From: Minisyncoccota bacterium | GTDB taxonomy: Bacteria > Patescibacteriota > Minisyncoccia > Phycocordibacterales > UBA9973 | Direction: 5' to 3' | Assembly: GCA_041661005.1 (NCBI GenBank) | Contig: JBAZVG010000001.1 | Coordinates: forward strand, 295,544 to 359,543 | DNA length: 64,000 nucleotides | Shown: positions 22,164 through 63,938 of the stretch, piece by piece | Layout of the letters: each line of letters starts with the position of its first letter | Numbering within the stretch: the first letter of the stretch is position 1 | The notes under the pieces: model-generated | The model's database searches: none | What the model was told of the DNA's origin: nothing | The model's input: only the letters and a program-made list of their open reading frames with translations | Program-made: the position numbers and the translations under genes

Positions 22164-22169
22164 CGAAAA

Positions 22170-22795: not shown

Positions 22796-22805
22796 AAAAT
22801 TAAAT

Positions 22806-22845: not shown

Positions 22846-22910
22846 GGCTAGTATGAATTAATTAGTAACTCACAACTTGCTCGACATACGAGCGTGTTTT
22901 TGTAAAATTC

Positions 22911-23465: not shown

Positions 23466-23470
23466 AATCT

Positions 23471-24142: not shown

Positions 24143-24200
24143 AATTCAATATTACAACTTTAATACAAAATTTCAAAACCCTTTATTCTACTAAAAATCT

Positions 24201-24228
24201 GTTTCCAATCTCGTATAATTAGATCACA
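24201..24228 (+). promoter_or_regulatory. Promoter-like recurrent motif, copy D: GTTTCCAATCTCGTATAATTAGATCACA
   Basis: Consensus -10 TATAAT. Lies 46 nt upstream of the 24274 ATG. Confidence 0.45.
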
Positions 24229-24273
24229 ATTCAGAAACTTGGCTTAAAAAATAATTAAAGCTATACTCTTACC

Positions 24274-29436: not shown

Positions 29437-29679
29437 TGTGGATAACTTTTTGGACTTTGATTGTCGAAAGTTTTACAATATGGAGGTTGGTGATGGTTTC
29501 CTTCAGTTGGTTGTTTGCCTGCTGGGTGCCTCTCCGCTTCCGTGTGAGTGGGGAGGCACCCAAATTTCAATCTTCCGCATGGAAGATATCTGGCGCCTAA
29601 AAACGCCAAAAGATGTCCTCGAGAATCTGATTCCCGGGGCATTTTCATTTTTAGGAGACAATCTCTATTCTAGATTCTT
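29437..29679 (+). ncRNA. Structured element copy 1 (~243 nt). Conserved 5' (DnaA box TGTGGATAA + TTGGAC-N17-TACAAT) and 3' ends; variable central hairpins.
   Basis: The 5' 52 nt and 3' ~55 nt are near-identical to 31164-31394. Central hairpins GGGTGCCTCTCC...GGGGAGGCACCC, TCTTCCGCATGGAAGA and TGGCGCC..GGCGCCA occupy the same positions as different-sequence hairpins in copy 2. Strand unassigned. Confidence 0.4.
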
Positions 29680-29718
29680 AGTTTTCTGCACGCTTAAGGA
29701 CGTTTATGAAATCGTGTC

Positions 29719-31127: not shown

Positions 31128-31163
31128 TTTCGTTAATTTTTAATTATGTTATGAGGGGTTAGG

Positions 31164-31394
31164 TGTGGATAACTTTTGGACTTTGGTTGTCGAAAGTTTT
31201 ACAATATGGAGGTTCCCTTCCGGGTAGTGGTTGTGTTCCCCGAGGAGGCCCCCTCGCACCACCGAGCGCACGGTGCGAGGGGGCGAAGTAGTAGCTCTTT
31301 TGTGTCTATACACATCGGTGTCGGAAGACACCAAAAAGCGGTCCCAGAATCTTTGATTCCGGGGCCTTTGCATTTTTAGGAGACAATCTCTATT
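31164..31394 (+). ncRNA. Structured element copy 2 (~231 nt)
   Basis: Same conserved ends as copy 1. Central hairpins CCCCCTCGCACC...GGTGCGAGGGGG and GTGTCT..AGACAC replace those of copy 1 at equivalent positions (structure conserved, sequence not). Confidence 0.4.
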
Positions 31395-41947: not shown

Positions 41948-41989
41948 AATCAGAAATTGTGTAGATCTTTCTGTCTCCCCTCATAAAAG

Positions 41990-42076
41990 CGGAGATGGTG
42001 AGATTTGAACTCACGATCGAGTTGCCCCGATGCCGGTTTTCGAAACCGGTGCCTTCAACCACTCAGCCACATCTCC
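41990..42076 (-). tRNA. tRNA-Ser (anticodon CGA), type II with long variable arm
   Basis: Hand-folded. Acceptor GGAGATG/CATCTCC, anticodon stem CCGGT/ACCGG with loop TTCGAAA, 18-nt variable arm, T-stem GTGAG/CTCAC with loop TTCAAAT, discriminator G. Confidence 0.8.
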
Positions 42077-42251
42077 TTGCTATGCTCGTCATTGTGTCTT
42101 CGTGCCCTCTTGGGCTCTTCCCTATGTCTTTATGCTAAAGCATATTAGACATTTCTGTAAAAGCAGAATCAGATGAAATATGAAGCAGTTCATATTTCAT
42201 AGCCACATCTCCTTATGTTCAATCTACCATTTTTTTGTATTCTGTCTAGAT

Positions 42252-42710
42252 TTATCTGATTCCACTATCAAACAAAATATCCAATCTAGTTGTTTTTTTT
42301 GAATCAAAAGTGATCGGCCCACGTGTCTTTAAAATAGGATAGCTTTCCGTGGTTATTTCACCTGGATTTGGAGGAATACTATGATTGGTGATTGTGTATG
42401 TATCTGCAGAAAGTCTAACTTCATATATGCCTTTTCTATTAGAAGTTGCAGATTTTCTTAGCTGGCCATCTGACGAAACAAAATAGATAGTTGTTTCAAA
42501 TGGTTTATCCGCGCATGATTCTGTCGTAGGGTAAGTGACTACAGAACAAACTGGACCTAAATAAATTGAACCCGTAACGATAACTTTATCTATTTCTTTA
42601 CTAGTTTTTTCTTTTGCTTGTAAGACAGAAATACCTATAACTAAGGTTGTGAACATAACAGTAATGATAAGAAAAAATTTTACCCTTGCTGATTTTGTAT
42701 TTTGAGTCAT
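42252..42710 (-). CDS. Hypothetical secreted protein (152 aa)
   Basis: N-terminal signal/TM ('FFLIITVMFTTLVIGISVLQA'). Confidence 0.4.
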   Translation of the reverse strand: MTQNTKSARVKFFLIITVMFTTLVIGISVLQAKEKTSKEIDKVIVTGSIYLGPVCSVVTYPTTESCADKPFETTIYFVSSDGQLRKSATSNRKGIYEVRLSADTYTITNHSIPPNPGEITTESYPILKTRGPITFDSKKTTRLDILFDSGIR

Positions 42711-42734
42711 ATATTATTAAATTTAATTATTAAT

Positions 42735-43115
42735 TTATACACAAAGAAAGTATATCATATTGTTAACTAAGGGAGCAGTTTCTTTCTTTTCGCCGATAAC
42801 CTTACCAACATAACAATAGGAAGTTTGGATTCTATTAAATTCGGTACGATACTCAATTATTATTCCGAGTTCTGAAATTACTTCCACATCAAAACCAACT
42901 TCTTCTAAACATTCTCTGCGAAAAGCAGTTATCTTATCTTCTCCATCCTCAATACCTCCACCTGGTAATTTATAGTATTCATGTTTTGAAACTGGAAGAA
43001 CAGCTACATTATTATTTAAATCAAACACAACACCTCTTGCTGCCAAACGAGGCTCAAGCTTTTTTCCTTCTTCTTCAGTAATATTTGCTGGGTTTATAAT
43101 TCTAAGTATTTTCAT
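42735..43115 (-). CDS. NUDIX hydrolase
   Basis: Nudix box 'GGIEDGEDKITAFRRECLEEVGFDV' (Gx5Ex7REuxEExGu). Confidence 0.75.
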   Translation of the reverse strand: MKILRIINPANITEEEGKKLEPRLAARGVVFDLNNNVAVLPVSKHEYYKLPGGGIEDGEDKITAFRRECLEEVGFDVEVISELGIIIEYRTEFNRIQTSYCYVGKVIGEKKETAPLVNNMIYFLCV

Positions 43116-43122
43116 GTTTATA

Positions 43123-43518
43123 TTATAGCAAAATACTTATGATAAATATTCCAAAACCAATAGCAATAAGATTATGTGTATTTTCAAAAAATTTACCTTC
43201 TGAATCTTTTTGACCAGAAGACTTCCATTCTTTAGGATATAAAGAGTCTTCTAAGTTATTAAAATGTGATTTCTTATAGAAACCTAGGGAATCCTCAATC
43301 TTGGCCAATATTCTCCTTTGACCATTAAAACCTTTTTCTAAGTCAGAAAAATAAAATTTTTTTAGTACGAACCAAATTATCAAAGAAAAAATACTTAAAG
43401 TAATTTTTTGTTTATCACTAAAACAGATCTCTGATTGAAAAAGCCACCCAGATGCCGCCAAAAGTAATCCAAGTATCCACAGTGCAACTGTTTGTACTCT
43501 TTCTCGTATTGTATGCAC
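43123..43518 (-). CDS. Small 2-3 TM protein, SLATT-like candidate effector (131 aa)
   Basis: Two N-terminal TM helices plus a C-terminal TM. 8 nt downstream of the NTase gene. Assignment rests on architecture and context only. Confidence 0.35.
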   Translation of the reverse strand: MHTIRERVQTVALWILGLLLAASGWLFQSEICFSDKQKITLSIFSLIIWFVLKKFYFSDLEKGFNGQRRILAKIEDSLGFYKKSHFNNLEDSLYPKEWKSSGQKDSEGKFFENTHNLIAIGFGIFIISILL

Positions 43519-43587
43519 AGATGTATATCTTTCTTGAAGTGCAATTAAAAGGGTATCGATTTTTGTTGTTCATTCATTTCCATATAT

Positions 43588-44466
43588 TTAGTTAATTAAA
43601 GTATAAACTTTTTCTAAGAATGTTTTAGCCTGTTCGTTTGTTCTTGCACTTTGACCTTTAAATAACCAGAGCAAGTCACTAACTTCAGCATATTCATGAG
43701 CTGTTTCAACAACAGACATATCTGCATATAGCTTTTTAAGGACATCATTCACTTTTTCTTTATGAGTATAGTTTTTAAAATGAGGATGCGGAACATTCCA
43801 GACCAAGCACTCCAAGAAAAATGATGGCATTGCTTTATCGTCAATGTGGTTATTATCAATCAGATGATTTCTACAATTTTTAATTGTTCTTACTATTGAT
43901 TTATAAATTTGATCCGTATTTTTGTTTTTCTCAACACCGTTTTCATAATGTTGTTTTGGAAAACTCCTTACTCTATTACCGTCATCTGAAACAAGCTCAA
44001 TGCCTTCAACTGAAACTGTTGTAGCACTACTAAATCTTTTATGAACAAAACATGCTATCACATCGGCATTAACGCGATAGGAATTTTTATTCACTCTTAT
44101 ACATTTATTTTTTCTTTCTACAGAACTAGAGAAGTTATTCTTAAGCACTTGCTCAACATCATTTTTAAATTGTGAAAATTTATATTCACTAGTACTATAA
44201 TAAGCCTTATGTAAAGCCTTATCTTGAGGTGAGAGACTTGATATTTCTGGGAAAAACGCATCTTGGTAGCAAACAACTATATCAACATCACTATCTTGTC
44301 TTACATTGGTACTGTTTTTATATGAACCTTGTAGAAAAATATCAACTTTTGATCCAAATTTCTCTTTTAATACTTTTGTTATGGAAGCAACAGTTGCGGA
44401 ACACCTTGCGTTTTCAGTTTCACTAAGTGGTTTAGACCAGTTTTGAAGTTGTTGTTCTGTAATCAT
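43588..44466 (-). CDS. Pol-beta superfamily nucleotidyltransferase, SMODS/CD-NTase-like
   Basis: Core 'LQGSYKNSTNVRQDSDVDIVV' (GS...[h]DxD NTase motif) and a downstream acidic residue. Confidence 0.55.
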   Translation of the reverse strand: MITEQQLQNWSKPLSETENARCSATVASITKVLKEKFGSKVDIFLQGSYKNSTNVRQDSDVDIVVCYQDAFFPEISSLSPQDKALHKAYYSTSEYKFSQFKNDVEQVLKNNFSSSVERKNKCIRVNKNSYRVNADVIACFVHKRFSSATTVSVEGIELVSDDGNRVRSFPKQHYENGVEKNKNTDQIYKSIVRTIKNCRNHLIDNNHIDDKAMPSFFLECLVWNVPHPHFKNYTHKEKVNDVLKKLYADMSVVETAHEYAEVSDLLWLFKGQSARTNEQAKTFLEKVYTLIN

Positions 44467-44526
44467 ATGTAAAGTGTGGATAACTACTACTTGTATACAT
44501 TCTAATTATTTTCTATAATACTATAC

Positions 44527-46392
44527 ATGCTCACAAAAAAGCAAGTGGATATCTTAAAGTTTATAAAAACTTATAGGGAGAAAAATGGCTATGCCCCCTC
44601 TCTTGAGGAAATAAAGAAAAAGTTTAAAATGGCATCGGTCTCAACAGCTCACTACTATATTAGCAAGTTGCAAGATGCTGGTTTTTTAAATAAAGAACAC
44701 AATCAACCTCGCGGTGTTTCCACAAAAGAAGCAAAACAAACTGTTGAAATTCCTATACTTGGCGCAATCGCCGCAGGACAGCCGATTGAGGCAATAGAAA
44801 TTCCAGACGAAACAATAACAATTACGAAAGATGAAATAGGACAGCAAGGGAAACATTATGCTTTACGCGTTCAAGGTAGCAGTATGATTGACGAAGGTAT
44901 TTTTGACGGTGACATTGTGGTTATAAGAAAACAAGAAGTCGCGGAAAATGGACAAACTGTTGTAGCTGTAATTGACGACAATGAAGCAACGCTAAAAAAA
45001 CTTTATCGCGAGAAAGGAAGATTCAGACTTCAACCCGCAAATCCGACCTTGTTTCCAATTTATAGAGACGAAGTAGAAGTCAGAGGCGTAGTTGTTAAAA
45101 TAATTCGCAACCTTGAATCACAACTTGACCAAGGGCAATCGAGAAAAGAAAAATATGTTCGTAAAATAGATTACTCATGGGATTATAGGGGGGAGAAAAC
45201 AAAATCATACACACACGGAATACATACTTATCCTGCTATGTTTATTCCCCAAGTCGGGCGGAGATTACTAGAAACTTATAGCAAGGAAGGCGACACTGTT
45301 TGTGATATTTTTTGTGGCTCTGGGACTGCTCTTGTAGAAAGTAGATTGCTGGGAAGAAATGCTTATGGTATTGATCTGAATCCGCTTGCCATTTTTCTTG
45401 CACATGCAAAGACAACACCAATTAATCCTCAAAAACTAACAAAGGAATACATAACATTATTAGACCGAATAGAAAAAATAAAAGACAACCAAATAAAAAG
45501 ACCTGAATTTAATAATATAGATTTTTGGTTTAAAGACAAAGTTATAGTTAAACTTGCCAAACTGAAAAAAGCTATTAAAGAAATAAAAGACCAGTCAATC
45601 CAGAATTTCTTAATGGTTGCCTTTAGTGAAACTGTTCGCTACTCATCAAATTGTAAAAATGGTGAGTTCAAATTGGTGCGTGTTAAAAGGGAAAAACTTG
45701 AAAAACATGATCCTGATGTTCTGGGAATTTTTCGTAAACATGCAGAAAAAAATATAGTTGGAATGACTCAATTTTTCAAAGATGCAAAAAAGGATTCATG
45801 GACAAAAATTATATATGGAGATTCATCAAAAGATAATGGTATAAAAGAAAAATCCATTGACTGCATTATTACTTCTCCTCCATACGGAGATAGTCGGACA
45901 ACAGTTGCTTATGGTCAATTTTCTCGTTTATCTGCTCAATGGATTGATATATTTGATGATCCAAATGACGCTTCGGGCGTAGACAACGCTTTGCTTGGTG
46001 GTAAAGCTACAAAAAACTTAATCCATCTATTGCCATCAGATTATTTAAAAGAATCATTAGAAAAAATTGCCAAACAAGACGAGGTAAGAGCAAGAGATGT
46101 ATTGAGTTTTTATATCGGATTAAGTGACTGCTTGAAACAAGCATATAAAATTCTAAAATCTAAAAAGTATTTCTGTTTAGTAATTGGTAATAGATTAGTT
46201 AAACAAGTTAGAATTCCTACAGATTTTATAATTGCTGAATTAGCCGAGAAAATAGGATTTACTTGCGAGGATATCATAGTCCGAAATATTCCAGGCAAAA
46301 GAATGCCGATCAAAAACTCCCCGACCAACATTGTCGGCGCTTTAGAAGAAACAATGAATAAAGAAAGTATTGTTGTGTTAAGGAAAAACTAG
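44527..46392 (+). CDS. Fusion protein: complete LexA-like repressor (wHTH + S24 peptidase) joined to an amino-methyltransferase (N4-C/N6-A; SPPY type)
   Basis: aa 1-~200: LexA N-terminal HTH, Ala-Gly cleavage site ('GAIAAGQP'), 'VQGSSMIDEGIFDGDIVVI' (Ser nucleophile), 'ATLKKLY' (Lys). aa ~230-621: MTase motif I 'DIFCGSGT' and motif IV 'IITSPPYGD'. Single continuous 621-aa ORF. Confidence 0.7.
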   Translation: MLTKKQVDILKFIKTYREKNGYAPSLEEIKKKFKMASVSTAHYYISKLQDAGFLNKEHNQPRGVSTKEAKQTVEIPILGAIAAGQPIEAIEIPDETITITKDEIGQQGKHYALRVQGSSMIDEGIFDGDIVVIRKQEVAENGQTVVAVIDDNEATLKKLYREKGRFRLQPANPTLFPIYRDEVEVRGVVVKIIRNLESQLDQGQSRKEKYVRKIDYSWDYRGEKTKSYTHGIHTYPAMFIPQVGRRLLETYSKEGDTVCDIFCGSGTALVESRLLGRNAYGIDLNPLAIFLAHAKTTPINPQKLTKEYITLLDRIEKIKDNQIKRPEFNNIDFWFKDKVIVKLAKLKKAIKEIKDQSIQNFLMVAFSETVRYSSNCKNGEFKLVRVKREKLEKHDPDVLGIFRKHAEKNIVGMTQFFKDAKKDSWTKIIYGDSSKDNGIKEKSIDCIITSPPYGDSRTTVAYGQFSRLSAQWIDIFDDPNDASGVDNALLGGKATKNLIHLLPSDYLKESLEKIAKQDEVRARDVLSFYIGLSDCLKQAYKILKSKKYFCLVIGNRLVKQVRIPTDFIIAELAEKIGFTCEDIIVRNIPGKRMPIKNSPTNIVGALEETMNKESIVVLRKN

Positions 46393-47135
46393 ACCAGTTC
46401 AACTTTAGTATCAAAACATTTATACAACTGATTCGGCTTTACACGAAAGGCAGTACCGTGGTTTCGCACAGATCCGCTTGGCCGATAGTACATGCGTAGA
46501 TCCACGACGACAGCATCTTTCTTCACCATCGCCTTGAAGTGCGCGAAATCGAAGCCTTCAAGAAAATATGCTTGGTTGAAATAGAAATGTTCGGTTCCGC
46601 GTATTTCCTTGGATTCGGCAAGCACATAAACAAGGGCTGGCAATTTAGCTTCGAATTTCCGTTGGAGATCTGTCATGTCCCAATAAATATTTAGCTTCCT
46701 TCCCTTACCAACGATCCGAACCTTATCTTTCTCCACCTTAAGTTTCAGACCTTGATTGTTGTAGCGTTTACAGGAAAGCATGACGTGGAGTTCTTTCGGT
46801 CGCCCATTGTCTCTTTTTGAGTAGCCGAAGCTATCCAGTAGCATTCGATCACGATCTCCACCTGCTGGACGGGGTTCCAGTGTAAAGAACGTCAATGGCG
46901 CGACGGCGCTTTTACGATATGCTTTGAGTTCTGCTATTTCACCAATGTCAGGAAGTGGGATGTTATTTTCTTTTATACCTAGTAAATCCTCAAGAGTTTT
47001 ACCTATTCCAGTATCACCTTTTCTGTGGGTTTTAACGAAACCAAGAACCTTGATTGCTTTGAGTTTTCTTTTGAGTTCCGGAAGTGTCATATTATTTAAT
47101 AAAAAATGACACATCCTTTTTATAAATGACCGCAA
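46389..47135 (-). CDS. Putative type II restriction endonuclease (PD-ExK)
   Basis: 'LPDIGEIAELKAYRK' fits PD...(D/E)xK. 248 aa. Convergent with the MTase (4-nt overlap). Start overlapped by the upstream HTH controller gene. Confidence 0.5.
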   Translation of the reverse strand: MRSFIKRMCHFLLNNMTLPELKRKLKAIKVLGFVKTHRKGDTGIGKTLEDLLGIKENNIPLPDIGEIAELKAYRKSAVAPLTFFTLEPRPAGGDRDRMLLDSFGYSKRDNGRPKELHVMLSCKRYNNQGLKLKVEKDKVRIVGKGRKLNIYWDMTDLQRKFEAKLPALVYVLAESKEIRGTEHFYFNQAYFLEGFDFAHFKAMVKKDAVVVDLRMYYRPSGSVRNHGTAFRVKPNQLYKCFDTKVELV

Positions 47136-47313
47136 ACTTCTTTATCTCTGCTACATCAAGTCTTCTTTCCCCAGATTCAATTTTTGAAATATAGGATTGT
47201 GGCTTACCGAGCTTATCAGCCACGGCTTGCTGTGTAAGTCCGGCTTCAATACGCCCTTTTTTCAAGCGTTCAATGATTGATTTATATTCTTTTGTATAAA
47301 CTGACTTATTCAT
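47092..47313 (-). CDS. XRE-family HTH protein, probable R-M controller (C protein)
   Basis: 'GLTQQAVADKLGKPQSYISKIESGERRLDVAEIKKFA' is a classic Cro/C1 HTH. 73 aa. Its stop overlaps the REase start. Confidence 0.7.
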   Translation of the reverse strand: MNKSVYTKEYKSIIERLKKGRIEAGLTQQAVADKLGKPQSYISKIESGERRLDVAEIKKFAVIYKKDVSFFIK

Positions 47314-47925
47314 AGGTATGGTAATAATATATCCCTTTATGGTATAATCCCAAAATAGGATTATTCAGTATTCTTACCCCTCATCCGCCATCCATTCGCG
47401 CACAAAACCGCCGTGAAAACTATAAGACGGCGACGAGCTCCCTTAATTTTTTTCATACATTGACAAATCAGCCAGACGTGCTATGGTGATGTTGGATAGT
47501 CAACCAAGGGAATAAATGAGCACTATAATCAAGTCAGGGTATCTCAAGCTTCACAAAGGTGGCATCATGGCCACAATCATGTTCAGCAATGGACACGAAT
47601 CACAAGTCCTCGCCACCAAGCGCTAAGCGCTGGAAATCGGTGAGGCTCTGCTCGGCCTAAGCATCACTGAAGAAGAGTGGAAAATCATCCGCCAGCAAGT
47701 TCATGCTAGCAGGCTCATCGACCGGAACGCCGAACTCGAAGCCATGGTCAGCACCATGGAAGGTAAACTCGAGGAACTGCGCCGAGAGATCGAAAAGGTG
47801 ATGCGTGAACAGGCGCAACAAGATGGCGAGGGTGAAGAGTGGAAGTCGTGAACATCAATCAACAGGGGTTGGCCAATGAAAGTTGACCAACCCCAAACTG
47901 TTTATATAATTAAAATTTTAAATAT

Positions 47926-48225
47926 TTAGATTCTAAAATACGAAACCATATGTCCAGTTTTTCCATTCTGTTTTATTTTTCCTTCTTTTTCGAGTTGTGA
48001 AAGATATCGGGTCGCTGTTGCGTCAGATACATGAAGAAATTTCTCGACTTCGTCATTTGTAATTTTAGATTGTTTTAGAAACAAAGACATCACTTTATCT
48101 AATTTCTTTCGCTTTCGGAATTGAATTGCGTTTCGAGCTGTGATTAGAAGTTCGCGAACAAAAGACTTTTTAGTGGTTGAGTAAGGACTACCCTTGCTCA
48201 ATGTTTTATGAGTGAGTTTGTTCAC
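47926..48225 (-). CDS. Hypothetical protein with C-terminal winged-helix (99 aa)
   Basis: 'VSDATATRYLSQLEKEGKIKQ' wHTH-like. The N-terminus overlaps the repeat hairpin 48199-48220. Promoter-like motif copy E lies upstream. Confidence 0.4.
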   Translation of the reverse strand: MNKLTHKTLSKGSPYSTTKKSFVRELLITARNAIQFRKRKKLDKVMSLFLKQSKITNDEVEKFLHVSDATATRYLSQLEKEGKIKQNGKTGHMVSYFRI

Positions 48226-48270
48226 ATTTGTTGGAGTTTCCGTGTGTCGTATAAAAAGTATTTCATATCT

Positions 48271-48298
48271 TTGACCCTAATTATACGAAATTGGAACC
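48271..48298 (-). promoter_or_regulatory. Promoter-like recurrent motif, copy E (reverse orientation): GGTTCCAATTTCGTATAATTAGGGTCAA
   Basis: -35 TTGAAT, 17-bp spacer, -10 TATAAT. ~45 nt upstream of the 48225 start. Confidence 0.45.
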
Positions 48299-48332
48299 TT
48301 GTATTCAATCAGACAAAAATTTTCAAATTGTT

Positions 48333-48602
48333 TTAACGATGAGGACAGCCAGCCCAACAACAAGGCCGTCTCATTCCACCCCTAAGTTTTGATAATCCCA
48401 CATTAATTCGGCGACTTCGTGTTTCCAACTGCTTCGCAGAGGTAACCCAGCAGATCCACTCATTACGCGCGAGTGGTGTAATGTCCTTCCATGTTGCACG
48501 CGCCTTAGGATTAGCAACAAGGGCTTTCTGCAAATCTACAGGCATTTTGTGCACCACACCAGTTGTAATTTTTTTGTTGGTCATGAATTTATTATATACC
48601 AA
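48333..48602 (-). CDS. YdeI/OmpD-associated family-like protein (89 aa)
   Basis: 'WKDITPLARNEWICWVTSAKQLETRSRRI' resembles the YdeI-family C-terminal pattern. Confidence 0.4.
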   Translation of the reverse strand: MVYNKFMTNKKITTGVVHKMPVDLQKALVANPKARATWKDITPLARNEWICWVTSAKQLETRSRRINVGLSKLRGGMRRPCCWAGCPHR

Positions 48603-48611
48603 TACTTGTGT

Positions 48612-48678
48612 GAGTAAGGACTACCCTTGCTTAAGGTACACTTCGCGTGCAACATATGACGTGAGCCACAATAAAATT
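48612..48678 (+). repeat. Module-X repeat (hairpin GAGTAAGGACTACCCTTGCTT + AAGGTACACTTCGCGTGCAACATATGACGTGAGCCACAATAA)
   Basis: Near-identical to 52008-52070. The hairpin alone is also present at 48199-48220. Confidence 0.65.
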
Positions 48679-48908
48679 CTACAGGGACCGTGAGTACACT
48701 TATCGATCCTTACAGGATCAGTACACCTTTTCGAATAGTTCAAAATAAATTTTTCACTATTAACGAAAAGCTTTTCGCTTCCCTGACGCGAGTAAATCAA
48801 TTTACTCGCTTAGGGTCATCGCACAAAAAAGGCAGAAGCTGATGCTGCTATAAAAGAGTATATGGAATCGTGTAGAAAATGTGAAGATTGTGGCAAAATA
48901 AAAAGTAA

Positions 48909-49907
48909 TTAATTTGTACTATTTGCCTTTGGATTTAACTTATCATAAGTATAAAGAAACTCTGTAGTTTTTTTAAGTTCAATAAGTAAATCTCTATTCT
49001 TATGAAAACCAAAGTTGAGAGACCTCATTAAGTTATATGTATTTATGGTGTGAATTGCTCCTTTATTATTAGTTATATCTTTTCTATTTACTTTCTTGCC
49101 TGATTCTTTGTGTGGATATCGTGCAACGATTACAACTCTTGGACTAAGAATAAAGGTTTGTTCTCTAGATAAAAAATCGTTGCCATAAAACTTTTTACTT
49201 AAAGCAATATCTTGATAGGGCGTGTCTGTGGTAATAAAATCTCCTTTTCTTGAAATATATATTTTCCAATATTTTGCTGTTAATAAATTAGAGAAGCCTT
49301 GTATTTCTTTCATAATTTCCATGTGGTGAGTGTTCCCCATATCAACTGTGTATTCTTCTTTATCGGCATATTCTATCATTTGTTCTTTTGTGATTCCAAG
49401 TTCTTCCATCTCCTTTTTTGACTTATCACTCCTTCCCATATTTCTAGCAATATGTTTATTAATTTGTTTTATTAAGTGATCTGTCATTTTCTTAGACTCT
49501 TCTCTGTATTTTTTACCCTTGAAATGCAAAAACAACATACATGAAGATAAGTTGAATTTATCGCCTTCTGTTATTTGTTCATTGTCTAAAATTTTCTTTT
49601 CTATTTTAGGAAGTTCAGTAGAAAAAACACCTTCAATTTCTGCAAATTTTTCTTCTACTTTCTGGCTGATCTCATCTTCTTTTCCTGTGTGTTGGGCATA
49701 AAAGAAGTTCTCATAGCAAAACCTGCTTGGATTTGACTTTGCCTCAAATATTTTAAGTATTGGAGGTTCTTTCCCTTCTATTTTAATAGGGTAAAAACCA
49801 TTATCTTCATCACACCATTGGCGGAGGTAAAATTGGGGAACATAGTGTTGTTTTCTAGTCCTTCTTTTTATTTGATTTGGTAATAGTTGATTTTGTTCCA
49901 TCTTCAA
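48909..49907 (-). CDS. DUF4238 family protein (332 aa)
   Basis: Hallmark N-terminal 'HYVPQFYLRQW'. Confidence 0.55.
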   Translation of the reverse strand: MKMEQNQLLPNQIKRRTRKQHYVPQFYLRQWCDEDNGFYPIKIEGKEPPILKIFEAKSNPSRFCYENFFYAQHTGKEDEISQKVEEKFAEIEGVFSTELPKIEKKILDNEQITEGDKFNLSSCMLFLHFKGKKYREESKKMTDHLIKQINKHIARNMGRSDKSKKEMEELGITKEQMIEYADKEEYTVDMGNTHHMEIMKEIQGFSNLLTAKYWKIYISRKGDFITTDTPYQDIALSKKFYGNDFLSREQTFILSPRVVIVARYPHKESGKKVNRKDITNNKGAIHTINTYNLMRSLNFGFHKNRDLLIELKKTTEFLYTYDKLNPKANSTN

Positions 49908-50412
49908 AAGTTCCTTCTAGACTTAGAAAAACATCGGAGGGGTGTAAATCTTTCTGGTCAAAAGCAAGTCTTCTTATTTCTGGTTCAACAAATATCTGAG
50001 TTTTGTCTTTTTTGCCTTTTTCTCCAGCGTAAACAACCAATCTTTGTCCCACCTTGGATTCAGTAAGTATTGCTCTAACAAAATACTTATCATCTTTTGA
50101 ATCAGCCCTATCTTCTGCAATAGGGATAGCTTCATCATCAAGATTAAGAAATTTCATTTTCTTGAATTCCTTGGAATTCAATTTATCAATAATGTAGCTT
50201 TTTTGAATATTGTATTCTCTGGGGAGAGTATAATTTTCATTACACTCTTGGCATTTTAACCAGCAAGCGTGTGGATTGTTTAATACCAAAGAAAGCGTCA
50301 GGTGATGCTTAGGGCAAAGAGGTTTTGTATATTCAGCAGACAAGTATTGAACATGCCATTTGATACCGTCAAGAGTTATATATTGTTCATCCATAGTTTT
50401 TAGTAATCCCAA
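49855..50412 (-). CDS. Hypothetical protein with CxxC...CxxC zinc ribbon (185 aa)
   Basis: 'CPKHH...C..KCQEC'. Overlaps the downstream gene by ~50 nt. Confidence 0.4.
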   Translation of the reverse strand: MGLLKTMDEQYITLDGIKWHVQYLSAEYTKPLCPKHHLTLSLVLNNPHACWLKCQECNENYTLPREYNIQKSYIIDKLNSKEFKKMKFLNLDDEAIPIAEDRADSKDDKYFVRAILTESKVGQRLVVYAGEKGKKDKTQIFVEPEIRRLAFDQKDLHPSDVFLSLEGTFEDGTKSTITKSNKKKD

Positions 50413-50600
50413 CCATTATTGCCAAAGTTATAATAACTGCTTACCTGTATACTCTTAACCAGAGTTCCTTTATTTCTACAATCGGGGCATTCCTGTTCTT
50501 CAAGTTTAGCTCCCTTTGGAACATCAAAGCCTTTTTTTGAGAAATTGCAGTTAGTGCATTCAACATTTAGTTTATAGAATTCTGGGATTTTATCATTCAT
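50400..50600 (-). CDS. Small zinc-ribbon protein (66 aa)
   Basis: 'CTNCNF...CPDCRNKG'. Confidence 0.35.
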   Translation of the reverse strand: MNDKIPEFYKLNVECTNCNFSKKGFDVPKGAKLEEQECPDCRNKGTLVKSIQVSSYYNFGNNGWDY

Positions 50601-50768
50601 GAGCGGATTATAGCAAATTCTTAATAAAATACAAAAAATATCTTGATAAACTTGGTATATTTATCACTTTGGAGACCAAAAATCATTTTGATAAATTTGA
50701 TATAATTACCAGTTTTAGAGCCTAAAAAAGATTTTGTCTAATTTGCATAACTAGAATGGAACACCCTT

Positions 50769-51116
50769 TTATGTTATATGATTATCTTTGGCTTGTTGTT
50801 TTGCTAAGACTGACACTTGCTCTCTATCTACCCCAATACCAGTATTATAATATTTACTCCTAGAATTTCTTTTGAATATCAGCTCATCATTAGTGTGCAC
50901 TATTCCAGTTGCACTTTTTTCAGAAGAATTATCATATTTAATAATTAACTCCCAACCTTTTGCACCAAGTTCTGTTAGCATCAGTTCAAAGTAGTATTTC
51001 CACCACTTCATAGTTTTATACTCTTCATCGTCATAGTCGTATTTTTCCATGTCTTTAATACTAGGATGCCTTATATCCTGTACTAAGTATTCAAACTCTT
51101 CACTAAAGAATTTCAT
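50769..51116 (-). CDS. Hypothetical protein (115 aa)
   Basis: ORF within the co-directional block. Confidence 0.4.
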   Translation of the reverse strand: MKFFSEEFEYLVQDIRHPSIKDMEKYDYDDEEYKTMKWWKYYFELMLTELGAKGWELIIKYDNSSEKSATGIVHTNDELIFKRNSRSKYYNTGIGVDREQVSVLAKQQAKDNHIT

Positions 51117-51127
51117 ATTATTTTTTA

Positions 51128-51310
51128 TTAATTCTTAATTTTCTCTGGTAAATAGTAAATTATAACTGCACCTATAATAAGAATTACTCCTATTATTTTC
51201 CCTGCATCGGAATCTTGTGATGCTTCAAAGAGAATACCATTCCATGTTGGGAATAAATAACTAAAAGCACCTGCTAAACCAAGAACATAAGCCCATGTTT
51301 TTTTATTCAT
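51128..51310 (-). CDS. Small membrane protein (60 aa)
   Basis: Two TM helices. Confidence 0.3.
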   Translation of the reverse strand: MNKKTWAYVLGLAGAFSYLFPTWNGILFEASQDSDAGKIIGVILIIGAVIIYYLPEKIKN

Positions 51311-51664
51311 TTACTTTTTATGATTACCTTTTAAATACCCAATAATTATTGCGATTTTCATAATTGCTTTAGGAGAAAAAAGTGGAAGAACTAGTAAAAT
51401 AAGTAACCAACCTGAGTTTCCTGCCATTGCTCCAGATATTCCAATAATCAGTATCACCAGCATTATTAACCTTCTTCCCATATCTCTAGGTAGCCAATGG
51501 TTCATCATTGAAACAGCTAATATTGTTTTGCGTTCCTCAAGAACAGATTTAAATTCAGGGTGTTTTTGCAGAGTATCTTCATGTTCTTTTAAAACATCAT
51601 CAACTTTATTAAATTGTTCTTGTAGCTCCTCGTGATTTAATTCTTTTTCCATATATTTATTCAA
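51311..51664 (-). CDS. Membrane protein (117 aa)
   Basis: C-terminal TM pair. Abuts the neighbouring genes. Confidence 0.35.
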   Translation of the reverse strand: MNKYMEKELNHEELQEQFNKVDDVLKEHEDTLQKHPEFKSVLEERKTILAVSMMNHWLPRDMGRRLIMLVILIIGISGAMAGNSGWLLILLVLPLFSPKAIMKIAIIIGYLKGNHKK

Positions 51665-52013
51665 TTGAAGGTCTATTGTCTTTTACAAACTCCTGATCTT
51701 CTTCCTCATTAAAATAATAATCAAGCAAAATATTTATTTTCTTTTTTTGGTCTGCAATTGCTTTATGTGTGCTGTCATTAACAAGATAATCACGTACACT
51801 ATCATCACCAGAATCTATTATAAATTGGTTTAATTTATGGATTTGCTTCCACAATCTTTTTACTTGAGCTTTAGGAGAATACACAAAGTAGAAGGCTAAT
51901 TCTCCGCCAACATAAGCTCCAACCAAAAATATAATTATTGATTTTATCATAATTAAGTCGTGTTTCCATTTTACCCTTTTTTTAATACTATTGAAAGACA
52001 ACTGGTTGAGCAA
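51657..52013 (-). CDS. Membrane-anchored hypothetical protein (118 aa)
   Basis: N-terminal TM helix. First gene of the block, next to the tRNA-flanking repeat. Confidence 0.35.
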   Translation of the reverse strand: MLNQLSFNSIKKRVKWKHDLIMIKSIIIFLVGAYVGGELAFYFVYSPKAQVKRLWKQIHKLNQFIIDSGDDSVRDYLVNDSTHKAIADQKKKINILLDYYFNEEEDQEFVKDNRPSIE

Positions 52014-52207
52014 GGACTACCCTTGCTCAAGGTACACTTCGCGTGCAACATATGATGTGAGCCACAATAATTTGCTCGTCGTCACTCGCAAATTTTCCAG
52101 CCCCGGACTCAGTTGTTTTTCCTACTGGAAAAACATACTTCCGTCTTCACAAAGCACTAGAAAAAGAGCACAGCAGTGTGCTCTTTTTCTAGTGAGTGCT
52201 TTGTGAC
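52008..52207 (-). repeat. tRNA-Glu 3'-flanking repeat element, copy B (module X + conserved tail + 25-bp-stem hairpin with a 4-nt bulge)
   Basis: The reverse complement of 52081-52207 aligns to 20513-20640 with few substitutions. 52008-52070 matches 48612-48678. Confidence 0.75.
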
Positions 52208-52275
52208 CCCACAGAGAATCGAACTCTGATTACCGGATTGAAAACCCGATGTCCTAACCGTTAGACGATGGGGCC
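52204..52275 (-). tRNA. tRNA-Glu (anticodon UUC)
   Basis: Hand-folded. Acceptor GGCCCCA/TGGGGTC; D-stem GTCT/GGAC; anticodon stem TCGGG/TCCGG with loop TTTTCAA; T-stem CAGAG/CTCTG with loop TTCGATT; discriminator A. Confidence 0.8.
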
Positions 52276-52853
52276 AAAATATTTAATCAGCCAAAATATA
52301 ATAACATTTTTATATCTAATTGCAAAAACAAAAGTACGGCCCGCCAGGAAAACCCAGCGAGCCGCACGCGACCAAAATCACAACACGAGGGAAAACTATG
52401 CCCTTCTTTGGATCAAACCAGGAGAACTGGCGCTCCTGATAGCGTCCAAGTGACCATTCCAGGCCGACAGACTCCCGAAATACAAAAATTCCCCTGGGCG
52501 AACGTCAACCTTACGGAAGACTGGCCCTGGATGGGTCCTCTTCCCGGTGATCCGCATGAGATCTTCCGTGGTCGTAATGTCGGGAATGATGGTTGGGGTT
52601 TCTGCGATTGTCGGTATTCCCGACGATGCTGATCTTGCACTCATTTTACTTATTGTTTGTGGAACATTCTTACCAGCTACTACTTTTTTTCATCTTCCAG
52701 AGACTCGTTTGCTCTCAGAAAGACTGTCTCAACGCTGGATTGAGACAAAAATCTAATTTCACTAAAATAATACCTCGCATTTCATACTTTGTCCAGACTG
52801 CATGTGCATAACCTCCCTGTCATTGATAACACGCCTCCAATTACATATAATCT

Positions 52854-60369: not shown

Positions 60370-60560
60370 TAATTTGCATTCATCTTGGCTTTAGTCTTCG
60401 GACCAATCAGTCCATCTGGAACTAAACCAAGATGTAGTTTGTCATTCAAGAATCTCTGAAGTTCCTTGACAACTCCACCCAAACTCCAGAGTCGGAGGGT
60501 GACGGTTCCGAGGTTGTAAGTATTAGTAGTAGTTGCTGTAGACAATTGTTGACAACACTA
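60370..60560 (-). pseudogene. Remnant of a peptidoglycan-binding (PG_binding_1-like) domain, duplicated from the 3' end of the 61230-63938 gene
   Basis: Minus-strand translation gives '...TYNLGTVTLRLWSLGGVVKELQRFLNDKLHLGLVPDGLIGPKTKAKMNAN*'. This parallels the C-terminus 'NYNLGTVTLRLWSRGEAVKELQRFLNDKLNLGLVLDG...GPKTKAMMNAQ', with an internal deletion and no start codon. Confidence 0.5.
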
Positions 60561-60615
60561 CTCTTTTTACTAAAATAGTCAGATGAAAAAATTACAAACT
60601 TTTTCTTTTTCAAAA

Positions 60616-61212
60616 TCAGTAGTGGCCCCAACATTCAGCCCCAGGCGTATAAATAGACCAAGCTGTAACATTACTGCCATCTCCCGAACCACTGCAACTT
60701 CCTGAAAAAGGTTGGTTACCTCCTACATTCTTTGGTCCACCGTCATATACTGGGTCAGCATGATTTTTAAGAAGGTCGGGATTCTCAGGATTCAAAAACA
60801 GAAGTTTAAAATCTGTTCCATCGCTCGCATAAAGATATTTTCTAGTTACTGGTACACCATAGCATGTTTTCGAAGGATCGTTGGGTACATCTTTCATATA
60901 CGGTTCCATCGCAGTTTTAAATGGAAGAGACCAATCATTACTACTCACACAACTATAATCTCTTTTACAATGAGAAACCCCAGCTAAATCATGACATCCA
61001 GTAGTAATAGGTATATAATAACCACCACCATGATCCGCGGCATAAAGTTCTACGGCAATATGCATCTGTTCTAAATCATTTATTCTTACAGCATCTCTAG
61101 TTTTAGCTCTAGCACTATTAAGTGAGCTCAAAACTATACTCGACAAAAGACCTATTATTGAGACTACTACAAGAAGTTCTATCAGTGTAAATCCTTTCGT
61201 GTTTAATTTCAT
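60616..61212 (-). CDS. Type IV pilin / pseudopilin
   Basis: Class III signal peptide 'MKLNTKGFTLIELLVVVSIIGLL' (G^FTLIE prepilin cleavage/methylation site), then a Cys-containing globular domain. Confidence 0.75.
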   Translation of the reverse strand: MKLNTKGFTLIELLVVVSIIGLLSSIVLSSLNSARAKTRDAVRINDLEQMHIAVELYAADHGGGYYIPITTGCHDLAGVSHCKRDYSCVSSNDWSLPFKTAMEPYMKDVPNDPSKTCYGVPVTRKYLYASDGTDFKLLFLNPENPDLLKNHADPVYDGGPKNVGGNQPFSGSCSGSGDGSNVTAWSIYTPGAECWGHY

Positions 61213-61229
61213 AAAATATTTTCATTTTC

Positions 61230-63938
61230 TTATTGCGCATTCATCATCGCCTTCGTCTTCGGACCAACTAGTCCATCGGATACTAGATTGTGATCAGTTT
61301 GCCATTTCTTGATAACTGCAATTGTCTTAGGGCCGAGAATTCCATCCAGAACTAGACCAAGATTTAGTTTGTCATTCAAGAATCTCTGAAGTTCTTTGAC
61401 GGCTTCACCTCGGCTCCAGAGTCTTAGAGTGACCGTGCCGAGATTGTAATTTGAAGCGCTGGTTGGAACATTTCCAATACAGGAAACTCCAGTGGTTGAA
61501 GAGAAGCCAGATGTTCTGTTGCCACAGCCTGGGATGGTGGAAGGGGTGGTAGGAGGAGCAACCACGATTGGTGTTTTTGATACTGAAGCATTCATCATGG
61601 CTTTGGTTTTAGCTCCAATTAATCCGTCTGGTACTAGACCATGATCGAGTTGCCATTTCTTGATGACGATAATTGTTTGTACGCCTAGTTTACCATCTAC
61701 TACTAGACCTAGATTCATTGTGGCATTCAAGAATCTCTGTAGTTCCTTGACTGCTTCACCAACACTACCTTCCTTGAGAGTGACATTACCGAAGTTGTAG
61801 GTACCAGAGGATGAAGAATTTAGAGCACATGATTGACCAGTAGTTTTACTGAAGCCAACTGTTCCATTGTCACATCCTGCAATTGTATTGAGTGGACTAT
61901 TTCCGCCTAATGTATCTGAAGGAGGATTATTGACATTACCTCCTCCTCCCCCAGGAGAAGGTTGAGTGACAGATGGAATGACGGTAAAAGTAGCAATGAC
62001 AGTTGAATCTTGAGTAGGGACAAAGGAACATGAGTTTACTCCAGAGCAGTATCCACCACTCCAACCGGTGAAGGTGGAACCAGATGATGGAGTTGCGGTG
62101 AGAGTGATTGCACTACCTGTAGTGTGACTACAGTCTGTGCCACAATTAATGCCTGTGGCTGTGACAGTACCGCTACCAGACCCAGATTTGTTGACAGTAA
62201 CAGTATGAGTAGAAGGAGTAGGATCAGTGCCTTCGATTACTGTATAAGTGGAAAAGCCAGAGACAGTGAAGACAAGAGTCTTTCCTTGACCTGCGACTGT
62301 AGAGTAAGAAGGAGTGCCACAAGTGGTACATAATACTCCATCTTTTAATATTTTTACTGTATTAAAGGAGAGGTTGTAGAGAGTGATGGTAGCAGGACGG
62401 TTTAACTCAGGAAGTGAAGTAGAATTGAGAGTGACTAAGGCTTGTCCAATAGTGAGATGAGAGTCGATGTCAAGCGCATCACCATTACTCTTGATTAACG
62501 GAGCGTTGGTGAAGGAAACTTTGCCATATGCAGTACCCAAGTCGAAAGAAGATGAATTGAGATCACCGCTTAGTGTAGGTTTGATTGTGAAATGGGTGAG
62601 TTTAGGCAAAGGACAGCCAAGGGTGTTAACTGTTACCCCAAGCGGAGTGCTACCACATTTATCATTAATATTTAAGACTCCATCGTTGTCCAAGTCATTA
62701 GAAGGAGGAGTCGGGAGAGTTGAGAAAGTTCCATCACCGGATGTAGTAGGATTCCCAGCTGCATCAGTTGAGATTATTCGGTAGTGGTAGATGCTGTTAG
62801 GAGTGAGAGAAATTAATGTCATTGTTCCAGAAGAAGTGGAAGCACTGCTATTGCCATATCCAACTGTCGCTCCATATTGAATGATGGTGGTAGTAGGTTC
62901 ATTGTTAGACCAAGAAATGGTGGCACTGGTTGTGGTTAAGTTAGAAGCATTGATACCGGTGATGGAAGGAGCAGTGGTGTCGGCAGGGATGGAAGAAATT
63001 GAAATAGAACAAGATGCTGTGGTTCCTCCGTTTGAACCTAGACATGACCAGAGGTAGTTGGTACTGGTGTCAGTGATGTCGGAGAAGGTGCCGGTGGTGC
63101 ATTGATTGAGGGTGGTGGAGCAGAGGCCGTTCTCAGGAGTTTGGGTACTGCCACCAGAATATTCATAGGCACCTATGTCCCAAGAGGATCCACGGGTAAT
63201 TCCTGACCTATCTTTAAGAATAAATGAGTCGGATCCAGATAAATTTAGATTGGGTAGCGAAGACAGATTTCTTCCTTTATTGATTACATTTGTCGAATTT
63301 GATGTCGGAGCAAGATTTGCACTGAGTTGCGGGTTTTGAGTTTCGCTCATATCAGTCGTGTATCGCTGTGGCAAAAATACATTGGCTGAATTTTGACTTT
63401 TAAATGTTGCGTACGGCATGGTAAATTCCACATTAAATGTACCCATGTCTTTCATGTTGACTTGAACTTTTGTGCTTGCACCTGCTGGACCGGGGGCATA
63501 AATATTATTATCAAAGACAACATTGTTATTGGTCGAGCCTCCCCACCCAGTGATGCCCCATTTTGGATTTAGGTCTCGTCCAAATCCTATGCCGGTAGAA
63601 TTGGTCATTGAATTATCGTAGAAAATATTATTGAGAACGTAGAAATTGGAAATAGTAGGGTCATAGGGAATCGGATTGTTGCCATCAGACTGGCCACCTT
63701 GTCCGGCAGAGGCATAGAGATGGAGTCCTGAACCGCTTCCGGTAAAGCCGACCATGGTGTTATTTGCAATTACTACATCAGATATCGAAGCCCACGAACC
63801 ACCGCTTGGAGCTTGAGGCGAGAATGTGATACCGAGACTCCCGGTTTGAGCGCTTGCATTGGTGTAGCCACTGCCGACATTGTTTATCATTCTGATACAA
63901 CATAAATTAGCATCATTGACTTCAGGAAGTGGGTTCAT
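61230..63938 (-). CDS. Large surface protein (>=902 aa): beta-helix-like N-region, FN3/Ig-like middle, two C-terminal peptidoglycan-binding repeats. 5' end may extend beyond the window.
   Basis: The ORF reaches the window edge without an obvious signal peptide at the first Met. The C-terminal 'GEAVKELQRFLN...LVxDGxxGxKT' segment is duplicated. Ser/Thr/Gly-rich low-complexity regions. Confidence 0.55.
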   Translation of the reverse strand: MNPLPEVNDANLCCIRMINNVGSGYTNASAQTGSLGITFSPQAPSGGSWASISDVVIANNTMVGFTGSGSGLHLYASAGQGGQSDGNNPIPYDPTISNFYVLNNIFYDNSMTNSTGIGFGRDLNPKWGITGWGGSTNNNVVFDNNIYAPGPAGASTKVQVNMKDMGTFNVEFTMPYATFKSQNSANVFLPQRYTTDMSETQNPQLSANLAPTSNSTNVINKGRNLSSLPNLNLSGSDSFILKDRSGITRGSSWDIGAYEYSGGSTQTPENGLCSTTLNQCTTGTFSDITDTSTNYLWSCLGSNGGTTASCSISISSIPADTTAPSITGINASNLTTTSATISWSNNEPTTTIIQYGATVGYGNSSASTSSGTMTLISLTPNSIYHYRIISTDAAGNPTTSGDGTFSTLPTPPSNDLDNDGVLNINDKCGSTPLGVTVNTLGCPLPKLTHFTIKPTLSGDLNSSSFDLGTAYGKVSFTNAPLIKSNGDALDIDSHLTIGQALVTLNSTSLPELNRPATITLYNLSFNTVKILKDGVLCTTCGTPSYSTVAGQGKTLVFTVSGFSTYTVIEGTDPTPSTHTVTVNKSGSGSGTVTATGINCGTDCSHTTGSAITLTATPSSGSTFTGWSGGYCSGVNSCSFVPTQDSTVIATFTVIPSVTQPSPGGGGGNVNNPPSDTLGGNSPLNTIAGCDNGTVGFSKTTGQSCALNSSSSGTYNFGNVTLKEGSVGEAVKELQRFLNATMNLGLVVDGKLGVQTIIVIKKWQLDHGLVPDGLIGAKTKAMMNASVSKTPIVVAPPTTPSTIPGCGNRTSGFSSTTGVSCIGNVPTSASNYNLGTVTLRLWSRGEAVKELQRFLNDKLNLGLVLDGILGPKTIAVIKKWQTDHNLVSDGLVGPKTKAMMNAQ

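Follow-up and report, generated by a model that had tools for sequence, protein, structure and literature searches.

A defence-rich 10-kb segment between tRNA-Ser and tRNA-Glu genes of a Nomurabacteria-like bacterium

Introduction

Defence islands and tRNA-linked hotspots described from the pan-genomes of Escherichia coli and Pseudomonas, including the P2/P4 hotspots (Rousset et al., 2022, PMC9122126), carry variable cargo between core genes beside the 3' end of a tRNA gene, and in them several unrelated defence systems are packed together, the composition is mosaic and the cargo varies between relatives. These properties are shared by the locus considered here, a segment of about 10 kb between the genes for tRNA-Ser(CGA) and tRNA-Glu(UUC) in a stretch of 64,000 nucleotides (contig JBAZVG010000001.1 of assembly GCA_041661005.1), the whole of which we call the window. 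Its host is a Nomurabacteria-like bacterium of the candidate phyla radiation (CPR) with a genome of about 0.8 Mb, and the source contig is 813 kb long. The locus differs from the described islands in its CPR host, in that no integrase or attachment (att) sites are left, and in that the hotspot of its relatives holds mostly non-defence cargo. As an island it is of a well-known, ordinary kind: presence and absence among relatives, clustering of defence genes and a contrast in composition are all found, while an integrase and att repeats are not. What goes beyond the ordinary is a fusion of LexA to a DNA methylase that recurs in the same position, the swapping of restriction and methylase genes within a conserved frame, and an element that trails tRNA genes. 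We propose that the island is very probably a mosaic of separately acquired modules filling a flexible hotspot, built by several acquisitions on the 3' side of tRNA-Glu.

The modules have described counterparts. Type I systems of cyclic-oligonucleotide-based signalling against phage (CBASS) with CdnE and transmembrane effectors (Cap15, Cap16; PMC10419184) resemble the first, in which a cGAS/DncV-like nucleotidyltransferase (CD-NTase) of clade E is followed by a protein with two transmembrane helices (2TM) and a NUDIX protein, with neither Cap2/Cap3 nor HORMA/TRIP13; Cap16 is a known effector of CdnE-type CBASS that combines a transmembrane part with NUDIX (PMC10419184). The second resembles type II restriction-modification (R-M) systems of the MvaI/BcnI family that are controlled by a C (controller) protein, with the same convergent layout of the methylase and C-nuclease genes and a palindromic C-box before the C gene. 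Methylases with N-terminal autoregulatory helix-turn-helix (HTH) domains are known as the SsoII/EcoRII/MspI type, and the locus likewise has a methylase with its own DNA-binding domain beside a divergent promoter. In the CapH/CapP control of CBASS (bioRxiv 10.1101/2022.04.27.489752) a cleavable repressor is divergent from the CD-NTase, suggesting DNA-damage induction, and a similar arrangement is seen here. Finally, a member of the DUF4238 family from the P2 hotspot gave strong single-gene resistance to T7 in E. coli (Rousset et al., 2022, PMC9122126), and the window likewise has a full-length PF14022 domain inside a defence hotspot.

The segment is an insertion in a conserved backbone

tRNA genes were called with ARAGORN and Rfam, protein families were assigned with Pfam, PADLOC and PHROG, and structures were considered through PDB matches and an AlphaFold model. 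Over the window, at gathering and E-value thresholds, Rfam matched tRNAs alone. The two tRNAs that the first-pass annotation of this DNA had given as the bounds of the island are both called by ARAGORN and Rfam at those places:

41989-42076, minus strand: tRNA-Ser(CGA), left anchor of the hotspot, 85-95% identical to tRNA-Ser in 17 related loci
52203-52275, minus strand: tRNA-Glu(UUC), right anchor, with the island on its 3' side

The upstream flank consists of ftsA, ftsZ, a trxB-like gene, DUF4430 and a 768-aa secreted protein; a B12 uptake system had been named there, and no clear one is present in this flank. Downstream are udg, a nucleotidyltransferase gene, tRNA-Val, tsaD, valS and PrsW, so that the housekeeping genes udg, tsaD and valS are found where they had been reported.

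Species-representative genomes scanned with the udg product gave 80 loci (best identity 85%), mostly from Ca. Nomurabacteria or Paceibacterota; loci and contigs are cited below by L numbers. The relatives compared are other species, with flank proteins 72-90% identical. At least 15 of the 80 loci have the same backbone of ftsZ, the trxB-like gene, tRNA-Ser(cga), tRNA-Glu(ttc), udg, the NTP-transferase, tRNA-Val, tsaD and valS. The two tRNAs are neighbours in 17 related loci, where the gap between them runs from 17 bp to 5.2 kb (17, 36, 61, 83, 112, 162, 199, 290, 482, 779, 884, 976, 1199, 1229, 1285, 1701 and 5190 bp) against 10126 bp here, and in none of the 80 loci did the island proteins have a real homologue within 10 kb of udg, three weak domain-level matches being all that was found. 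The comparison with a tRNA-Ser to tRNA-Glu backbone that had been suggested as a check therefore comes out as an indel, with a short gap in 17 relatives and the island proteins absent from 80 loci: the 10-kb segment is an insertion relative to the conserved flanking backbone. In the simplest relatives tRNA-Glu and tRNA-Ser are nearly adjacent and probably form one Glu-Ser transcript. Cargo found at the hotspot in relatives includes GH130, PGI, MFS, PMSR, glycosyltransferase, HD, NUDIX and cupredoxin genes. Compared with the window, 7 of the 17 relatives have tRNA-Glu(ttc) inverted with respect to udg and 3 have tRNA-Ser inverted (L008, L012, L022, L024, L025, L034, L036), which suggests that local inversions recurred at the hotspot.

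Family scans bear out the gene inventory first drawn up for the segment, namely a secreted (152-aa, signal-anchored) protein, the CD-NTase-2TM-NUDIX trio, an R-M system with a LexA-methyltransferase (MTase), a winged-helix (wHTH) gene, an OmdA/YdeI gene and DUF4238. The expected enrichment of defence annotations is also seen, with CBASS, type II R-M and DUF4238 within 10 kb against one PADLOC family (cut-off E<=1e-10) among the 45 proteins from the remaining 54 kb of the window. Pfam found no integrase, recombinase or transposase domain in the window and the serine recombinases of L084 match nothing there, in agreement with the earlier remark that no integrase was seen. The composition contrast that had been noted is real, although it is modest and patchy: the island has 34.6% GC against 38.7% elsewhere in the window, the values of single modules lie between 30.6% and 49.8%, and the GC content at third codon positions is 0.19-0.21 in CBASS against 0.3-0.4 in the flanks. 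Exact-protein look-ups gave no record for the udg product or the LexA-MTase, and for the 768-aa protein and CdnE they gave short contigs of the same sample only.

The CBASS module

The left part of the island holds the CBASS genes and the gene beside them:

43588-44466, minus strand: CD-NTase of clade E (CdnE); PADLOC Cyclase 1.7e-93, PDB match to the CdnE homologue 6E0M at 2.1e-88, GS...DxD motif in the translation
43123-43583, minus strand: candidate 2TM CBASS effector, conserved beside CdnE in L092, L093, L095, L096 and L101
42735-43115, minus strand: NUDIX hydrolase gene of the CBASS operon, 3'-truncated; Pfam NUDIX 3.1e-10 over profile positions 4-98 of 134
42252-42710, minus strand: 152-aa signal-anchored protein of no family (no Pfam, PADLOC or PHROG match), absent from the 80 loci, the 5' region of which replaces the 3' end of the NUDIX gene

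CdnE and the 2TM gene form a block that is seen again, 73-99% identical, in other contigs, and the lesions of the present copy were read against L092, which is 98.6% identical in nucleotides. In contrast to the described type I systems, the putative effector is frameshifted, the NUDIX gene is truncated and the 2TM protein matched no effector or Cap family profile in Pfam or PADLOC. Specifically, in the 2TM gene the full-length frame that begins at 43583 is lost through deletion of 1 nt from a run of A near 43564, and an internal GTG at 43518 gives an open reading frame (ORF) of 131 aa, while the NUDIX ORF has 126 aa against 168 aa in L092 and lacks its last ~55 codons, the alignment with L092 breaking at 42774, where the 152-aa gene begins. 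In contrast to Cap16, the 2TM and NUDIX parts are separate genes, both here and in L083. Pfam found no ancillary Cap domains (Cap2/Cap3, HORMA/TRIP13) among the island ORFs. By its likeness to known systems, infection would cause CdnE to make a cyclic dinucleotide and the two-helix membrane effector would then kill the cell, if the effector is still made. In L095 and L096 (3163-4184) CdnE is itself split by a frameshift.

The R-M module and its LexA-methylase

The R-M module lies to the right of, and divergent from, CdnE:

44467-44526, no strand assigned: divergent promoter region with a TGTGGATAAC motif and, 7 nt ahead of the ATG of the LexA-MTase, a TATAAT; the region is conserved in L083 and L084
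44527-46392, plus strand: LexA (wHTH and S24 peptidase) fused to an N4-cytosine-type DNA methyltransferase, 621 aa; Pfam LexA_DNA_bind, Peptidase_S24 and N6_N4_Mtase, PADLOC MTase_II 3.8e-134
46389-47090, minus strand: type II restriction endonuclease of the MvaI/BcnI family with its true start at ~47090; Pfam PF15515 1.3e-48, 83% full-length identity to the L084 nuclease
47092-47364, minus strand: C protein gene with the upstream palindrome ATAATCC-N7-GGATTAT, right end of the mobile R-M module; HTH_3 8.9e-15, PADLOC Control_protein

The LexA part of the fusion is complete, matching PDB 3k2z at 2.5e-32 over residues 2-196, and its AAG, Ser and Lys align to A84-G85, S119 and K156 of E. coli LexA. 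Hence, in contrast to the autoregulatory HTH methylases, the DNA-binding part is here a full LexA with the self-cleavage site and the Ser/Lys dyad intact. The methylase part carries a TSPPY motif, read from the translation, and SPPY is a motif typical of N4-cytosine enzymes. The fusion was absent from 72,556 plasmid and 50,697 phage records, and a literature search found no description of LexA-methylase fusions, while public databases already label the protein 'LexA' or 'PspGI methylase'.

We infer the activities of these proteins, the regulation by LexA and the order of insertion, and all functions given here are predictions. The C protein would switch on and time the MvaI/BcnI-family nuclease. 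The apparently cleavable LexA most likely represses its own leaderless methylase promoter and possibly the divergent CBASS promoter, and DNA damage would stimulate LexA self-cleavage through RecA, releasing the promoters and raising methylation. Co-regulation of the divergent CBASS by LexA is possible by analogy with CapH/CapP. It should be noted that CapH/CapP is a pair of an HTH protein and a metalloprotease, whereas the predicted repressor here is a self-cleaving LexA of the S24 type that forms the first part of a methylase gene or operon. The TGTGGATAAC motif lies 8-25 nt upstream of the start of the divergent gene in seven of the seven contexts examined.

A GTGTGGATAACT motif, the reverse complement of the consensus DnaA box TTATCCACA, lies at 44474-44485, just upstream of the gene divergent from LexA, and it is also present in intergenic regions of L083, L084, L093, L094, L096 and L097; a second copy in the window (31163-31174) is upstream of an unrelated gene. 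The upstream regions 29448-29686 and 31174-31411, separated by 1.7 kb, share 92-98% identity over 41-53 nt and look like duplicated regulatory regions.

The R-M module in other genomes

The LexA-MTase falls into more than 120 database clusters at 87-100% full-length identity, from Nomura-, Vogel- and Yonathbacteria and other Parcubacteria, whereas core proteins are far more diverged (in the nearest species udg is at most 85% and valS 43-69% identical). The unit 44475-47364, comprising the promoter, LexA-MTase, nuclease, C gene and C-box, is common to L084-L089 at 78.5% nucleotide identity, and homology ends at 47364. In these contigs an AAA_15 ATPase and a large serine recombinase accompany the module, and in L084 it is part of a complete integrative element of 7.7 kb (6114-13861) with a 20-bp repeat, derived from the tRNA-Asn 3' end, on either side. 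Besides the LexA-MTase, the MvaI/BcnI nuclease and the C protein, the L084 element carries an AAA_15/AAA_21 ATPase and a serine recombinase of 500 aa.

Other contigs share less. Only the MTase gene is common to L083 and the window (90% in nucleotides), the methylases being 97% and the nucleases 36% identical, and the L083 methylase adjoins another CBASS with a CD-NTase 30% identical to that of the window, Cap15 and NUDIX, beside tRNA-Glu(ctc) and its trailers; given the divergence of the two CD-NTases, we reject this CBASS as the same unit. In L110 and L111 the module stands beside reverse transcriptase (RT) and radical-SAM genes, next to tsaD/valS, and in L112-L114 it adjoins tRNA-Lys, with the nuclease decayed to 122 aa (8039-8407) and the LexA-MTase intact. 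The frame around the R and M genes can also be conserved. The stretches 43125-44497 (CdnE and 2TM) and 47085-47367 (C gene) are common to L093, L095 and L096, the R and M genes of which differ, and in L093-L096 the CdnE genes, 73-89% identical to that of the window, diverge from a LexA gene that stands alone and comes first in unrelated operons for C5 methylases, which include HindVP or Eco47II nucleases, while the C gene and the CdnE-proximal promoter are still homologous to the window. Related cargo elsewhere adjoins the 3' ends of tRNA-Glu(ctc), tRNA-Asn and tRNA-Lys.

The R-M module is highly mobile across Parcubacteria, and a LexA gene repeatedly has an R-M system on one side and CBASS or some other defence-like gene on the other. 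We put forward, as a tentative idea about which we have more doubt than confidence, that a mobile LexA, as a fusion with the methylase or from a gene just ahead of it, serves as a DNA-damage switch shared between the R-M system and a second module, that R and M genes are swapped within a conserved frame running from the C gene to the LexA promoter and CdnE, and that the composite unit spreads by insertion at tRNA 3' ends in Parcubacteria. The methylase would be raised when self-restriction or phage attack triggers RecA, and the divergent partner (CBASS, the AAA_15 ATPase, or RT and radical-SAM genes) may be co-induced.

The DUF4238 region and small genes

The right part of the island contains the following features:

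47516-47851, plus strand: small gene of ~111 codons from an uncharacterised family, with a CAA>TAA nonsense codon at 47624; homologues of ~102-115 aa align across the stop
47926-48225, minus strand: small winged-helix DNA-binding protein, HTH_24 3.9e-5, with a sigma-70-like promoter at 48280-48308 from a promoter scan
48333-48602, minus strand: OmdA/YdeI-domain protein, Pfam PF13376 4.2e-19
48909-49907, minus strand: DUF4238 protein, candidate single-gene anti-phage system; PF14022 1.8e-32 over residues 19-293, full-length domain
49855-50600, minus strand: 185-aa Cys-rich and 66-aa zinc-ribbon proteins of no family, upstream of DUF4238 in its unit, unlinked to DUF4238 in L090 and L091
50631-50737, no strand assigned: intergenic tandem repeats with ~44-nt units, GGYCTCTAAAACTG...ATCAA, 78% identical to L090 4678-4786, upstream of the DUF4365-DUF4238 unit of L090
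50769-52013, minus strand: four small ORFs of 115, 60, 117 and 118 aa and no family, three of which are predicted, from hydrophobic stretches in their translations, to have membrane helices

The gene order here was first described as a block of seven genes led by DUF4238. Only the DUF4238 gene (48940-49854) and the repeat region 50631-50737 are common to L090, and the partners differ, with DUF4365 in L090 and Mrr and a serine recombinase in L091, where the homologues belong to other defence contexts, in both cases beside tRNA-Glu(ctc). Since these contigs share just DUF4238 and the repeat region and have other partners, the supposed block consists of at least two units, in which DUF4238 is the last gene and not the first. 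The tandem repeats are likely the regulatory region of the DUF4238 unit. The differing neighbours fit autonomous action, and the DUF4238 protein would act alone against phage. In contrast to the DUF4238 of the P2 hotspot, that of the window is a distant CPR homologue and closes a unit in which two small ORFs resemble zinc fingers. The AlphaFold model of this DUF4238 protein (pLDDT 86) had no significant fold match in the PDB, and the six small ORFs between 49855 and 52013 had no Pfam, PADLOC or PHROG family.

Between the R-M module and this unit, what had been called a GC-rich disrupted ORF fragment (47516-47851) is indeed GC-rich (50%) and disrupted, but it is a full-length gene of ~111 codons with a single nonsense codon, the TAA standing in place of the Q of TKRQALEIGE in the homologues, and a hairpin follows it on the 3' side at 47865-47894. 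A homologue of the winged-helix protein, 46% identical, is found near the CBASS/R-M pair in L093, L095 and L096.

The tRNA ends and their repeats

Short repeats had been reported at both tRNA ends of the segment. Both exist, but their role as markers of the island ends is unsupported, one being a feature of a tRNA leader and the other of a tRNA trailer:

42077-42251, minus strand: tRNA-Ser leader and promoter, backbone and not island, holding a 14-bp duplicate of the tRNA 5' end at 42202-42215; homologous to the regions upstream of tRNA-Ser in L016 and L009
52003-52202, minus strand: tRNA-Glu trailer 'Y', with an 18-bp perfect hairpin, a ~100-nt structured region and copy 2 of a 64-nt repeat
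48611-48832, minus strand: truncated trailer 'X' without a tRNA, with copy 1 of the 64-nt repeat, matching the sequence directly after tRNA-Glu in L025 and L026

On the left, the copies of the 14-bp direct repeat are at 42065-42078 and 42202-42215, and the order within the leader is a promoter (TAGATT), a duplicate of the tRNA's initial 12 nt, an insert of ~125 nt and tRNA-Ser. The layout is identical in L016 (about 8820-8969), where the tRNAs are only 199 bp apart and the duplicate carries that genome's own tRNA variant (GGAGGCGTGGCT). We therefore reject the repeat as an att site, as L016, without the island, has the same layout with a co-varying duplicate, and because the repeat belongs to the tRNA-Ser leader the island starts at ~42252. 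The L009 leader has the tRNA-proximal ~95 nt in common and lacks the duplicate, the possible origins of which are a small insertion with target duplication or a processed leader.

On the right, trailer Y shares 92% identity with the trailer that tRNA-Glu(ctc) has in the same window (20566-20669). In Nomurabacteria the trailer element occupies ~130-200 nt after the 3' ends of tRNA-Glu and tRNA-Phe. It contains one long and perfect hairpin, a pair of short hairpins that show compensatory changes, GAGTCCGGGGCTGGAAA, the terminal motif TTATTGTGGCTCACRT and a hairpin of the GNRA type. Copies follow tRNA-Phe or tRNA-Glu in L008 (18384-18545 and 9057-9151), L009 (9590-9757), L083 (12963-13090), L002 (7256-7396) and L034 (17288-17372); a further one is at 315-473 in L026, and those of the window are at 20518-20711, 52003-52202 and 48611-48832. 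In an alignment of 12 sequences, 14 of the 21 predicted pairs show compensatory changes. The element has no Rfam family, and the trailer motif had no match in viral contigs. It may be a new RNA family or a recombination target in the spread of composite units.

Trailer X keeps just the 3' half of the long hairpin and is likely a relic of an earlier tRNA-Glu 3' flank. The simplest reading of this arrangement is that newer DNA entered between tRNA-Glu and the old trailer, which would mean successive accretion at the 3' side of the tRNA. The 64-nt direct repeat (95% identical, copies at 48611-48674 and 52007-52070) brackets 48675-52006 and is the common 3' end of trailers X and Y. As att sites of the DUF4238 block the copies are unsupported, being the shared 3' end of two paralogous trailers, although they could still permit recombination. 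A search inside the island for copies of the tRNA-Glu 3' end found none.

Between tRNA-Glu and udg, on the minus strand, lies a GC-rich unit of ~430 nt (52334-52765) with a promoter-like site and a strong terminator of 15 bp, 10 of them GC; it has a fold z-score of -3.6, an 82-aa ORF without family and no Rfam match, is absent from relatives, and is either a non-coding RNA or an orphan gene. A promoter-like repeat of 48-64 nt (TTGAAT-17-TATAAT ... AATTAGGGTCA) has five copies at 21477-24229 and one at 48260-48323, and precedes small genes downstream of tRNA-Glu(ctc) and also the winged-helix gene of the island; the stretch 20.8-24.2 kb is perhaps another variable locus that lies behind a tRNA-Glu. 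At 60394-61800 there are direct repeats of 126-173 nt, 67-81% identical, partly inside a 902-aa ORF (61230-63938) that encodes a repeat-containing protein.

Discussion

We propose several acquisitions because the modules differ in their nearest relatives, their neighbours and their GC content. The mechanism of insertion has to be drawn from other genomes, as the window has no integrase, transposase or tRNA-derived att repeat. The principal alternative is that the whole 10 kb is one integrative element, or the remnant of a prophage or satellite, that entered once at tRNA-Glu and later lost its integrase. It would account for cargo on the 3' side of tRNA-Glu, as with classical tRNA-targeting elements, and related serine-recombinase elements do carry the same R-M module (L084) or DUF4238 (L091). 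However, each module of the island has different nearest relatives and neighbours elsewhere, GC content differs from module to module (31% to 50%), the island is divided by a truncated trailer inside it, the PHROG matches within it are to generic wHTH only and no att repeat is present, so that we regard a single entry as improbable. Differential loss, by which the region would be ancestral and deleted in relatives, is more improbable again: CPR genomes are strongly reduced, deletions in them are common, and the hotspot of relatives holds unrelated cargo of 0-5 kb, but independent losses would be needed in all 17 relatives, the island composition is unlike that of the flanks, and copies of the R-M module that stand at unrelated loci in distant Parcubacteria match it at 88-97% identity, well beyond what core genes reach. 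The least credible explanation is an assembly or binning artefact of this metagenome-assembled genome. In its favour, independent Logan contigs of the same sample are interrupted within tRNA-Ser and its leader, L001 stopping at 42018 and L082 beginning at 42177, which could reflect strain heterogeneity at this site, but L082 joins the leader (42177-42251) to the island at 100% identity, that leader is homologous to those of L016 and L009, and the right side has a normal tRNA-Glu with trailer and promoter on the long source contig.

Several points weigh against a mosaic defence island. The cargo of the hotspot in relatives is mostly metabolic or has no assigned role, with defence as an occasional exception (a retron-type RT, a DpnII nuclease and PemK). 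The integrase and att repeats that the window lacks are both present in L084, about half of the island ORFs have no family, and the CBASS copy may be non-functional, given the frameshift in its effector and the truncated NUDIX gene. The closest relatives are different species. The segment is an indel relative to its relatives, its domain content and gene lesions can be read directly, and its modules have separate histories. The site is a general flexible hotspot and not one dedicated to defence, with defence genes as its main content in this genome.

To our knowledge, CPR bacteria, or Patescibacteria, have tiny genomes and are usually described as poor in defence beyond R-M. As the window shows, they keep flexible hotspots linked to tRNA genes, where CBASS, R-M and DUF4238 modules gather, and these modules pass from one lineage to another with their sequences highly identical. 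As for the tRNA trailer, it may be a structured RNA not described before. The recurring position of LexA between an R-M system and a second defence gene raises the possibility that restriction, methylation and abortive infection might be coordinated in these bacteria through the SOS signal.

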